This document shows positions 4,354 through 6,411 of a stretch of 33,644 nt of DNA, one piece after another. Every line of letters starts with the position of its first letter. The first letter of the stretch is position 1. The notes under the pieces are model-generated. The model saw only the letters and a list, made by a program, of their open reading frames with translations, was not told the origin of the DNA and made no database searches. The DNA comes from a virus (lineage: Duplodnaviria > Heunggongvirae > Uroviricota > Caudoviricetes). Both the position numbers and the translations under genes were made by a program. Location of the stretch: IMG/VR virus record IMGVR_UViG_2700989508_000034; one strand, given 5' to 3'.

Positions 4354-6411
4354 TTATGCCGCAGGGGTATTAACCTCAAGGACAACGCTCTCAAAAGACA
4401 CGCCATAAGTTGCCCCTTTGGTGACATCTGTCAGTGTCAGCGTATCTTTGGCAGGGGAAAGTGCATCTTTCACCATCTGGAATGCCTGGCCCGGAGTGCC
4501 ATCCAGCACAGGCGTTACCTGGGCACTTCCCGCCGTAAACTTCAGGACAAGTGTATGCCACTGGTTATTGTAGGCTCCAAATGATCCCAGTTTCGTATTC
4601 CCCCCTGTTTTATGGTGCATCAGATTTAACTGGCCGCCTGTTGTCTGGAGATAATACGCCATCAGGAACGGTGTGCCTGTACCACTCATGGTTACACCTT
4701 CCGGGACCGTATCGGTGTGGAGGTAAATACCCAGAGCAAACTGGCCTTCTTTTACTTCACCTGACAGACGGAATTTACAGGTCAACTGACCACCATGCTT
4801 CAGAAGTTCACCGGCTGCATCAGTTCCATGGGTAAGCGTCCAGGTTTTTCCGCTTTGTTTGGATACGGTCAACGCTTTACCTTCGTCCGTCAGCTGGATT
4901 GTACCATCTGTAATTTTCCAGCCCTGAGCCGGGGCTTCTCCTGCTGATGCTTTAAGTGAAAGCAGCGTACGGAGTGACGGGGATGTCGGATGGGGGGACT
5001 CACTGCCTCCTGGCTGACTACCTGTCGGCGCTTCCGGTTTCCCACCCGGCGCGGGCTGAGGCAGGGCTTCACCATCAGGGGCCACACCGGCAATAAATGC
5101 AGAGGTCAGACCTGCATATTTAAGAATTGCTGATGCAAAACGATCTGAGACCAGAAAACGGCGCGCCCAGGAGCTAAAATGGGTTGCCCTGGATGCTGTT
5201 GTCCAGTTGCCATCTCCCCGTGATTCCGCACCATAATACCCGGCAGAAGCGATATCCGGGTCGTGCTCCGGCAGGTTGGTCGCGGTTTTATTACCGAACT
5301 CATCGTGCATCAGTGGAACAAAGTGAATGTTCTCGGAAGCCCGGTTTTTATATCCGCTATAAATGGTTTCATATGCCGCCGGGTTCTTCTCTTTCCAGTC
5401 ATAGGTTGTGTCACCACATAACCACGGCACACTGTCTGATGAACCACCAATACACTGACCGGAGAAAGCACCAAGATCCGCACGGAATTTTTTCACCATC
5501 GCAGTAAACTGGGCACCATGCTGGGCCGGGGTCGCTTTAAGGTCTCCTTCCCCCTGAATCCATACGACAGATAACAGCACATTCTTTGGATTCGCCTCAA
5601 GTGCCGCTTTAGTTCGACTGACAAGATCCTGATACAGTGGGGTATCCACTCCCCAGCGTAGTGACGCCTCGGCTGCACCACTTGCCGGATCGAATGAGCC
5701 AACTGCGCCGGTTGTAAAAGCAGAGCCGCCACGGGCACAGGGAACCAGTAAAATCCCGGCATCAGCAGGAATCACCGGTAATACTTTTTTCGCAATATGA
5801 AGTCCCTGCCCCACACAACCATACTGCCCTTTTTTCAGGTCTGCTTTTGGATGGTTCAGCAGACTCATATTCTGAACATCATGAAGGCAGTGATCTGCTG
5901 GAATGATTTCATTGTATTTGCAGGGAATACCTCCGGGGGTTTGTGTATTCCTGCGTGCCAGCTGCATAATACGTGGATCAGGACGATCATAAGAATCCGG
6001 AAGGGGCAACCCTTCACCATAAGATGAAGCATTGGACTGGCCGGCTATAACAATCACGTAATACCAGGAAGGGGAGCTGGAAGCAGTTTCATTTCCTGCC
6101 GGACGGGTATGTGTTTCTGCATTATCCCAGTCTGACGGTTCAGTAGTACCGGCAACATCAGCACTTAACGGAATGACAGCACCAATACCCGCTCCGGTAA
6201 TTTCCACGTTCGGATCACCGGATACTGGCCTTACCCACAGGCAATCCTGTGTATTAAAACTGATGAGACAGTCAGCAAATGTCATTCCTCCTTTCGTTTC
6301 AGCAGGAGGAAAGGGAGCCTCAAGAAATGCCGCTGTACCACCGGAAACTTTAACGGTAAAGTTTCCGGGCATTGATGATAGTTGAACCCATTTGGACGTC
6401 ATAATATTCAT
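4354..6411 (-). CDS. SGNH/SASA-family carbohydrate esterase, sialate O-acetylesterase-like (NanS-p-like), with C-terminal lectin-like domain; prophage cargo
   Basis: 685 aa; YVIVIAGQSNASSYGEG carries the GQSN motif of sialate O-acetylesterase-type hydrolases; Gly/Thr-rich beta-like C-terminal region; ATG 6411 with AGGAACAGG upstream. Confidence 0.55.
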   Translation of the reverse strand: MNIMTSKWVQLSSMPGNFTVKVSGGTAAFLEAPFPPAETKGGMTFADCLISFNTQDCLWVRPVSGDPNVEITGAGIGAVIPLSADVAGTTEPSDWDNAETHTRPAGNETASSSPSWYYVIVIAGQSNASSYGEGLPLPDSYDRPDPRIMQLARRNTQTPGGIPCKYNEIIPADHCLHDVQNMSLLNHPKADLKKGQYGCVGQGLHIAKKVLPVIPADAGILLVPCARGGSAFTTGAVGSFDPASGAAEASLRWGVDTPLYQDLVSRTKAALEANPKNVLLSVVWIQGEGDLKATPAQHGAQFTAMVKKFRADLGAFSGQCIGGSSDSVPWLCGDTTYDWKEKNPAAYETIYSGYKNRASENIHFVPLMHDEFGNKTATNLPEHDPDIASAGYYGAESRGDGNWTTASRATHFSSWARRFLVSDRFASAILKYAGLTSAFIAGVAPDGEALPQPAPGGKPEAPTGSQPGGSESPHPTSPSLRTLLSLKASAGEAPAQGWKITDGTIQLTDEGKALTVSKQSGKTWTLTHGTDAAGELLKHGGQLTCKFRLSGEVKEGQFALGIYLHTDTVPEGVTMSGTGTPFLMAYYLQTTGGQLNLMHHKTGGNTKLGSFGAYNNQWHTLVLKFTAGSAQVTPVLDGTPGQAFQMVKDALSPAKDTLTLTDVTKGATYGVSFESVVLEVNTPAA

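Follow-up and report, generated by a model that had tools for sequence, protein, structure and literature searches.

The stretch of DNA analysed here, referred to as the window, comprises 33,644 nucleotides of a virus of the Caudoviricetes (IMG/VR record IMGVR_UViG_2700989508_000034), and the gene under study encodes a NanS-p-like esterase located between the gin invertase gene and the com and mom genes of a Mu-like prophage (Table 1). In phage Mu (NC_000929) gin almost abuts com and mom, as an earlier note made from the sequence alone had stated: the distance from the gin stop to the com start is 94 bp in Mu vs. approximately 3.28 kb in the window. The same note delimited the additional block as 3266-6501. 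A large insert is indeed present, but it consists of three minus-strand genes (the esterase, a DUF1378 gene and a DUF826 gene) plus approximately 600 bp harbouring a frameshifted plus-strand open reading frame (ORF) and a hairpin, and it excludes the stretch 3221-3300 with its GATC cluster, which is part of the com/mom regulatory region. The 81-amino-acid 'com' ORF starting at 3265 is a TTG-extended reading; the annotated com start is 3220. The GC content of the insert (0.45-0.53) is similar to that of the neighbouring gin, G-segment and mom end (0.41-0.52). The window Gin shares 75% amino acid identity with Mu Gin, and the remaining window is a genuine Mu-like prophage, with MuB, Mor/C, lysozyme, gp27, portal, MuF, protease I and the major head protein gpT, as well as the Mu gp45-48 tail genes. 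The right end of the prophage lies at approximately 2199, the point at which copies with different host flanks diverge.

Table 1. Features of the esterase locus and candidate late promoters in the window (aa, amino acids; pLDDT, predicted local distance difference test)
Feature	Position	Strand	Basis or remark
nanS-p-like esterase gene, 685 aa	4354-6411	-	ORF with ATG start; Pfam, PHROG and PDB matches
N-terminal domain, aa 1-82, predicted small all-beta barrel in place of DUF1737	6166-6411	-	AlphaFold2, profile searches
Linker 1, aa 83-115, S/T/G/P-rich, predicted disordered, SSSP end	6067-6165	-	pLDDT <50 for aa 83-110
SGNH type II (SASA) catalytic domain, aa 116-435	5107-6066	-	3PT5 alignment
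Linker 2, aa 436-480, P/G/S-rich	4972-5106	-	Sequence
C-terminal lectin-like jelly-roll domain (DUF6645), aa 481-685, putative carbohydrate-binding module	4357-4971	-	6YP6, DUF6645
DUF1378 gene, 59 aa, N-terminal transmembrane segment	4117-4296	-	Pfam 9.2e-24
DUF826 gene, 81 aa	3836-4081	-	Pfam 3.1e-15
Terminator-like hairpin after DUF826, 13-bp stem and T-rich tail	3491-3520	-	
Frameshifted remnant of an ECs_4996-like ORF, no family	3335-3797	+	RefSeq annotation of identical sequence
gin invertase (upstream landmark, Mu backbone)	6502-7062	-	Pfam Resolvase 1.4e-51 and HTH_7
com (downstream landmark, Mu backbone)	3020-3220	-	Pfam Zn_ribbon_Com; RefSeq annotation
mom (downstream landmark, Mu backbone)	2329-3066	-	Pfam Mom 8.5e-77; RefSeq annotation
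Predicted Mu-type (C/Mor-dependent) late promoter of the esterase	6435-6477	-	CTGAATTAACGCAAAA (6462-6477), 21-nt spacer, TATGAT (6435-6440)
Candidate late promoter of the protease I gene	22480-22523	-	CTGAAATCCCGCAAAA, 34 bp upstream of the gene; 22-nt spacer
Candidate late promoter of the lysozyme gene	30535-30578	-	CTGATATTCCGCAAAG, 59 bp upstream of the gene; 22-nt spacer

Profile and structure searches identified the predicted product of the gene as a NanS-p-type SASA/SGNH esterase. The earlier note had proposed this identity from a GQSN motif (residues 124-127) and a beta-rich C-terminal part, and both observations held: Pfam SASA matched residues 119-315 (1.6e-13, above the gathering score), the C-terminal part is a real domain matching DUF6645 at residues 537-647 (8e-26), and phrog_143 spanned residues 65-684 (2e-273). 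No NCBIfam model matched the esterase. Among structures, E. coli NanS/YjhS (PDB 3PT5) aligned to residues 108-432 (E 3.7e-110, 55% identity over 321 positions) and the C-terminal domain of a NanS-p (PDB 6YP6) to residues 481-682 (E 9.7e-42), while the esterase of the Stx1 phage YYZ-2008 was 62% identical from residue 109 to the C-terminus. The best matches were esterases and not structural tail proteins. An identical ORF is named 'DUF6645 domain-containing protein' by RefSeq in other genomes, and the gene has also been machine-annotated elsewhere as 'sialate O-acetylesterase'.

The SGNH catalytic residues were present in the alignment: Ser126 (codon 6034-6036, minus strand), Gln125, His411 (codon 5179-5181, minus strand) and Gly228/229 align with Ser19, Gln18, His301 and the oxyanion glycine of NanS, an enzyme that works with Ser19 and His301 and an oxyanion hole of Gln18 and glycine, without a catalytic Asp (PMC9063846). 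The window enzyme is predicted to be built in the same way, with a Ser126-His411 dyad, a Gln125/Gly oxyanion hole and no catalytic Asp. His411 lies in the block IV sequence RATH, which fits within the range of NanS-p block IV sequences (RSSH/RASH/RPTH; PMC10462455). NanS is a single-domain protein of approximately 326 amino acids belonging to the nan regulon, whereas the window protein is phage-encoded and has extra N- and C-terminal domains. The C-terminal jelly-roll probably binds glycans; of the four aromatic positions proposed to form the sugar site, F558, Y563 and Y587 are retained. Linker 2 is hypervariable among alleles. Linker 1 ends in SSSP immediately in front of the catalytic domain, ESP and TSP occur in linker 2, and type-2 alleles, whose N-terminal domain is approximately 60% identical to that of the window, have SSSEP instead; in a phi24B preprint, SSP-containing linker motifs are proposed as self-processing sites of gp84 (bioRxiv 10.64898/2026.04.10.717836). 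No hydrophobic N-terminal segment of the signal peptide kind was found (Kyte-Doolittle 15-residue maximum 0.85).

The N-terminus of lambdoid NanS-p is DUF1737. When the window protein was aligned with lambdoid NanS-p, it showed an unrelated N-terminus of approximately 95 amino acids followed by the S/T/G/P linker, and no Pfam family, DUF1737 included, matched the N-terminal domain even at E<=10. A single-sequence AlphaFold2 model of the full protein was unusable (mean pLDDT 32), but a model of the N-terminal domain from a five-sequence alignment predicted five strands (residues 9-12, 16-32, 43-54, 57-73 and 76-81) with pLDDT of 78-87 over residues 11-70. Its fold matches were weakly cupin-like, and the best ones in BFVD were stand-alone phage proteins of 77-97 amino acids; the domain has no histidine and hence is not a metal cupin. 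A remote DUF1737 was ruled out, given the missing Pfam match and an all-beta prediction vs. the helix and three strands of DUF1737. A non-coding or junk 5' extension was also ruled out, both by the ratio of non-synonymous to synonymous substitution rates (dN/dS) of the domain, which was 0.03-0.04 when type-2 alleles were compared with one another and 0.15 for type-1 alleles (0.09-0.13 in the catalytic domain), and by a 28%-identical homologue in a Mu-like prophage of Salmonella enterica, fused there to an AGQSN esterase start just downstream of gin.

The N-terminal domain is confined to Mu-like prophages, whose hosts are E. coli, Shigella and Salmonella. Searched exhaustively with HMMER, 1.84e9 representatives yielded esterase-linked homologues only, all of them from enterobacteria; in 50,697 phage records the domain was found only in two Mu-like phages nested inside Stx phages, and its profile had no match in a search of one genome per species. 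A search with the full-length protein separated two architectures, SASA+DUF6645 with approximately 99% coverage and SASA+DUF1737+DUF6645 with approximately 84% coverage. The protein P0008 (1445 amino acids, nine repeats) was set aside, as it looks like a low-complexity artefact. A further homologue of 752 amino acids, P0117, joins DUF1737, SASA and DUF6645 with a phage tail-collar domain (PF07484) and hints at further architectures in the family.

The two small genes downstream of the esterase are also known from lambdoid phages, in which DUF826 and DUF1378 genes lie between nanS-p and S (PMC10462455). The order in the Stx2 phage TL-2011c is stx2AB, nanS-p (DUF1737+SASA+DUF6645), a 41-amino-acid ORF, DUF1378, DUF826 and the holin gene S, and in 933W a DUF1378 homologue directly follows nanS-p. 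Given this shared synteny, the unit common to lambdoid and Mu-like phages is a three-gene cassette. In the DUF1378 protein, the Kyte-Doolittle 19-residue mean reached 2.46 at residues 4-22. The ECs_4996-like ORF, a remnant in the window, is intact in E. coli O157:H7 Sakai (154 amino acids, no Pfam match). Within this region, and convergent with the cassette, lies a 56-amino-acid ORF (3627-3797, plus strand) with a CPAC...CPAC zinc ribbon and a strong AAGGAG Shine-Dalgarno sequence, whose family matches were faint (Trm112p 0.007, phrog_9584 0.009).

The earlier note had likened the protein to lambdoid NanS-p, and the likeness applies to the catalytic and C-terminal domains. Compared to the lambdoid proteins (933W L0105/z1466, phi24B vb_24B_21, that is gp84, and YYZ-2008 gp42), the catalytic domain of the window protein is 67-68% and its DUF6645 lectin-like domain 40-60% identical; two flexible linkers, the lack of a signal peptide, the DUF1378 and DUF826 genes that follow and a predicted late expression are also shared. 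However, the lambdoid proteins have DUF1737 where the window protein has the unrelated beta-barrel of approximately 80 amino acids, and the gene lies outside a lambdoid late region: the carrier is a Mu-like transposable, myovirus-type prophage instead of a lambdoid phage, the gene sits between gin and com/mom and not between stx/Q and holin, and the control is a predicted Mor/C-type late promoter instead of Q antitermination. Judged from its sequence, the window protein is best filed as a Mu-type variant of NanS-p, a member of an enzyme family already known.

Comparison of the gin/com junction with that of other Mu-like prophages, which the earlier note had suggested, revealed the same cassette throughout. 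The identical protein occurred in 2657 database blocks, always in Mu-like prophages; six representative loci had gin, esterase, DUF1378, DUF826, com and mom with differing host flanks, which fits a phage that transposes. With a profile of the N-terminal region, 34 IMG/VR loci were retrieved, and the cassette was present in 34/34, with the gene order from gin to mom kept wherever flanks were present. This com-mom type was found in 233 of 5426 complete E. coli genomes (285 places), and the type-1 N-terminal region plus its upstream spacer in at least 205 of the 5426 (246 places); a nucleotide search with the type-1 region would miss the more divergent type-2 N-terminus. In the Sakai prophage Sp18, reported to be intact and efficiently packaged (PMC2669165), the cassette corresponds to ECs_4993-4995, annotated as 'hypothetical proteins' within ECs_4992-4998. 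The esterase gene was intact in 29 of 32 complete IMG/VR copies (679-693 amino acids), and dN/dS was 0.03-0.23 across all three esterase domains; this conservation and purifying selection exclude a pseudogene. The cassette is a resident accessory module, standard in Sp18-type Mu-like prophages. The acquired moron proposed in the earlier note consequently needs qualification: the block is absent from Mu and has a predicted promoter and a hairpin of its own, but it is lineage-wide rather than sporadic and its GC content is similar to that of its neighbours.

Several matches initially taken as integrase-adjacent (H104-H108) proved to be rearranged or insertion sequence (IS)-disrupted Mu-like prophages. 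In several genomes of E. coli strains that produce Shiga toxin (STEC; L048 in NZ_CP027591, 4578175-4598003, and H105-H108), a prophage rearrangement splits the esterase gene: the N-terminal 159 codons remain beside gin, and the other part of the gene is either attached to a truncated integrase or broken up by IS1.

The esterase alleles are mosaic. Nucleotide identity between the window and group B (L016 and Sakai-like phages) was 96-100% from gin to approximately 6063, fell to 50-74% over the part that codes for both the catalytic and the C-terminal domain and for DUF1378 (6062 to approximately 4100), and returned to 97-100% from DUF826 through mom. The recombination breakpoint at approximately 6063 coincides with linker 1. 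ECs_4993 of Sp18, a group-B allele, illustrates this cassette swapping: it lies between gin (ECs_4992) and com/mom (ECs_4997/4998) in the same cassette and its N-terminal domain is approximately 96% identical to that of the window, but overall identity is 60% and its catalytic and C-terminal parts are closer to 933W. Amino acid identity to 933W was 81% (SASA) and 78% (C-terminal domain) in group B vs. 68% and 40% in the window, indicating an exchange of alleles with the lambdoid pool. For the window allele, it was ruled out that a co-resident lambdoid prophage had been the recent source: in the 5426 complete E. coli genomes, every copy of 4100-6062 with more than 85% nucleotide identity belonged to a Mu-like prophage and no lambdoid copy exceeded this value, and Stx-phage alleles were approximately 67% identical to the window allele at the nucleotide level.

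A putative promoter precedes the esterase in the 90-bp gap downstream of gin. It consists of a 16-nt element and a -10-like hexamer, and similar candidates were seen upstream of the lysozyme (lys) and protease I (I) genes. The lys and I sites share the motif CTGA(A/T)AT(C/T)CCGCAAA(A/G), a 22-nt spacer and TA(T/C)GCT, so that the hexamers at the three sites, after 21-22 nt, are TATGAT, TATGCT or TACGCT (TAnGnT). The composite pattern had three matches in the window vs. none in 100 shuffles, although it had been defined post hoc; a search with a pattern taken only from the lys and I sites found the esterase site at three mismatches, among six matches vs. 1.68 expected. The Mu Plys and PI regions contain a similar element (..TCCCGCAC.., core ..T(C/T)CCGCAC..) at the same places. 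In both phages, the C-dependent late promoters of Mu (Plys, PI, PP and Pmom) and the predicted ones of the window, the element lies approximately 21-22 nt upstream of a TAnnnT -10, without a good -35; the candidate motif of the window differs in detail from that of Mu, and in Mu neither a late promoter nor a gene lies between gin and com. A scan of the window for TTAT-N6-ATAA, the C-box dyad of Mu Pmom, gave no match. A Mor/C-family activator is encoded at 30575-31000 (minus strand; Pfam Mor 2.8e-32, 39% identity to Mu C). Weaker copies of the motif were observed at 7534-7549, inside the invertible segment, and at 31449-31464 (plus strand).

The 90-bp spacer is partly conserved among type-1, type-2 and gin-less variants, and the promoter element is kept in type-2 loci. 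Some type-2 variants, among them L043 (7166-7991) and L029 (2719-3544), lack gin; there the esterase directly follows a tail-fibre assembly gene of the opposite strand and the upstream element is retained. As the element persists where the upstream gene is convergent, the esterase appears to need a promoter of its own. With moderate confidence, the cassette can be counted among the late transcription units of the phage, in parallel to the Q-dependent late expression of lambdoid nanS-p. Its predicted promoter resembles those that the phage itself uses late, so that lytic growth, and not lysogeny, is probably the state in which the genes are expressed.

Taken together, we consider it probable that the gene encodes a late-expressed cytoplasmic esterase which is released by lysis and de-O-acetylates 5-N-acetyl-9-O-acetylneuraminic acid (Neu5,9Ac2) and mucin glycans. 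The esterase, DUF1378 and DUF826 would be made as one transcript from the late-type promoter activated by the Mor/C protein, and the transcript would stop at the hairpin, keeping the cassette separate from com/mom. Since the protein lacks a signal peptide, it would build up in the cytoplasm during lytic growth and leave the cell on phage lysis. Outside the cell, it would remove O-acetyl groups from Neu5,9Ac2 and acetylated mucin glycans; the deacetylated sialic acid would then be usable by sibling lysogens, and phage movement in mucus might also become easier. Lambdoid NanS-p proteins cleave Neu5,9Ac2 and mucin O-acetyl groups and support growth on Neu5,9Ac2, and their genes are induced together with late genes (PMC8065619, PMC10462455). 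We infer the benefit to host fitness from this work on lambdoid NanS-p.

Several observations weigh against this lysis-release model. It leaves the function of the N-terminal domain unexplained, the window C-terminal domain misses one of the four aromatics proposed for sugar binding in phi24B, and the phi24B homologue is a processed, capsid-decorating protein, so a released soluble enzyme may be an incomplete picture. A literature search found no paper pairing NanS-p with Mu-like phages and none naming ECs4993. The promoter motif was spotted by inspection, which makes the composite statistic circular, and the independent search gave a modest excess. A simple sigma-70 scan of the gin-esterase gap found no promoter, and the gap holds no terminator-like site, so that read-through from gin is possible.

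Such read-through from the constitutive gin would make the gene a classical lysogenic-conversion moron, transcribed in the prophage state and producing esterase without lysis; the earlier note, too, had suggested a moron, acquired for host fitness. The esterase is on the same strand as gin, only 90 bp away, and the hairpin after DUF826 would serve as the transcript end of the block. We regard this as very unlikely, however: a living lysogen would retain a protein without signal peptide in its cytoplasm, the upstream element resembles phage late promoters and is kept in gin-less variants with a convergent upstream gene, and lambdoid nanS-p genes are late-induced.

The lysis-release model has also to be compared with a virion-displayed enzyme, in which the N-terminal barrel would anchor the esterase to the capsid or tail of the Mu-like phage, and the enzyme would serve the phage (mucus adherence or penetration, receptor access) rather than the lysogen. 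In phi24B, gp84 gives one of the major bands of the virion, and its DUF1737 assembles into a hexamer on the hexons of the capsid (bioRxiv 10.64898/2026.04.10.717836). DUF1737, through which gp84 decorates the capsid, is exactly the domain replaced in the Mu-type proteins; the split between both architectures is clean, with the Mu-type domain restricted to Mu-like prophages, and near-identical Mu-like phages differ by a swap of the catalytic and C-terminal parts that leaves the N-terminal domain in place with its backbone. The domain is as constrained as the catalytic domain, its best fold matches are the stand-alone phage proteins mentioned above, and the predicted late promoter would co-express the esterase with structural genes. 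Against these points, the N-terminal type does not follow the capsid protein: in type-2 phages, identity to the window is 97-98% for gpT and 93-95% for the baseplate proteins gp47/48, while one type-1 phage has gpT at 91%, so no co-variation of the kind expected from an anchor was seen. The fold is unlike DUF1737, and the N-terminal domain belongs to a hypervariable right-end segment together with tail-fibre genes S and U. In Mu, the genes to the right of gin are non-structural, which also counts against display.

On balance, display on the Mu-like virion is unlikely, and the generalisation is equally doubtful that NanS-p proteins are modular virion-displayed glycan esterases with a morphotype-specific N-terminal anchor, either DUF1737 (phi24B/933W-type) or the beta-barrel of approximately 80 amino acids (Sp18-type). 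If it were true, this would be a second independent way to attach a mucin-sialic-acid deacetylase to a phage particle, with freely exchanged catalytic and lectin modules, and the view of nanS-p as a host-fitness moron would become secondary to a phage-centred role in mucus.

The position of the gene right after the tail-fibre/invertible segment, or directly after the tail-fibre assembly gene in the gin-less variants, would acquire a meaning if the enzyme were an adsorption aid that, in the manner of tail-associated SGNH esterases, deacetylates the O-acetylated O-antigen or capsule of target cells, and if its place beside the host-range module reflected that role. This idea has been raised for NanS-p (PMC8065619); it is in line with the location in the hypervariable segment that also holds S and U, a weak match to a 'tail protein' of PHROG (1.1e-6, residues 211-315) and the tail-collar domain of P0117. 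Nevertheless, the closest characterised relatives, NanS and NanS-p, act on sialic acids, and the window protein has no trimeric or fibre-like region; we give this possibility very little credence, and the released, late-expressed esterase remains our preferred reading of the locus.

Some observations concern other parts of the window. The com/mom control region (3221-3340) is unlike that of Mu: a GATC cluster (approximately 3262-3295) lies only approximately 45 bp upstream of the com ATG, and upstream of the cluster there is a half-conserved CTGAAT element with 21 nt and TATCAA. With this arrangement, Dam/OxyR sites may sit downstream of the promoter vs. upstream in Mu. Beyond mom, a 744-amino-acid ORF (1-2235, minus strand) encodes a YadA-type trimeric autotransporter adhesin (Pfam YadA_head, YadA_stalk and YadA_anchor) and starts within the prophage end. 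As prophage copies with other flanks diverge at approximately 2198-2200, the insertion site of the Mu-like phage is an adhesin gene, and the first 12 or so listed codons are phage-derived. An apparent low-GC island at 28001-29000 (GC 0.25-0.42) was rejected as a biological feature; a masked run of N inside the gp27-like gene (28359-28770) explains it.

NanS-p proteins are discussed as fitness factors of enterohaemorrhagic E. coli, whose lysogens use O-acetylated mucin sialic acids; there are several copies per strain, all those described so far in lambdoid prophages. The gene described here has been public since the Sakai sequence, and its analysis extends the current understanding without overturning it: it represents an unrecognised type of nanS-p copy in the widespread Sp18-type Mu-like prophages of O157, O26, O111, O145 and other STEC. 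Counts of nanS-p alleles per strain, and knock-outs of the lambdoid copies only, may therefore be incomplete. The swap of the N-terminal domain, with DUF1737 now shown to bind the capsid, constitutes an experimental handle on the question of virion-borne vs. released enzyme. The predicted C-type promoter suggests that the cassette has been wired into a circuit unlike Q antitermination, as would follow the transfer of a module between unrelated temperate phages.

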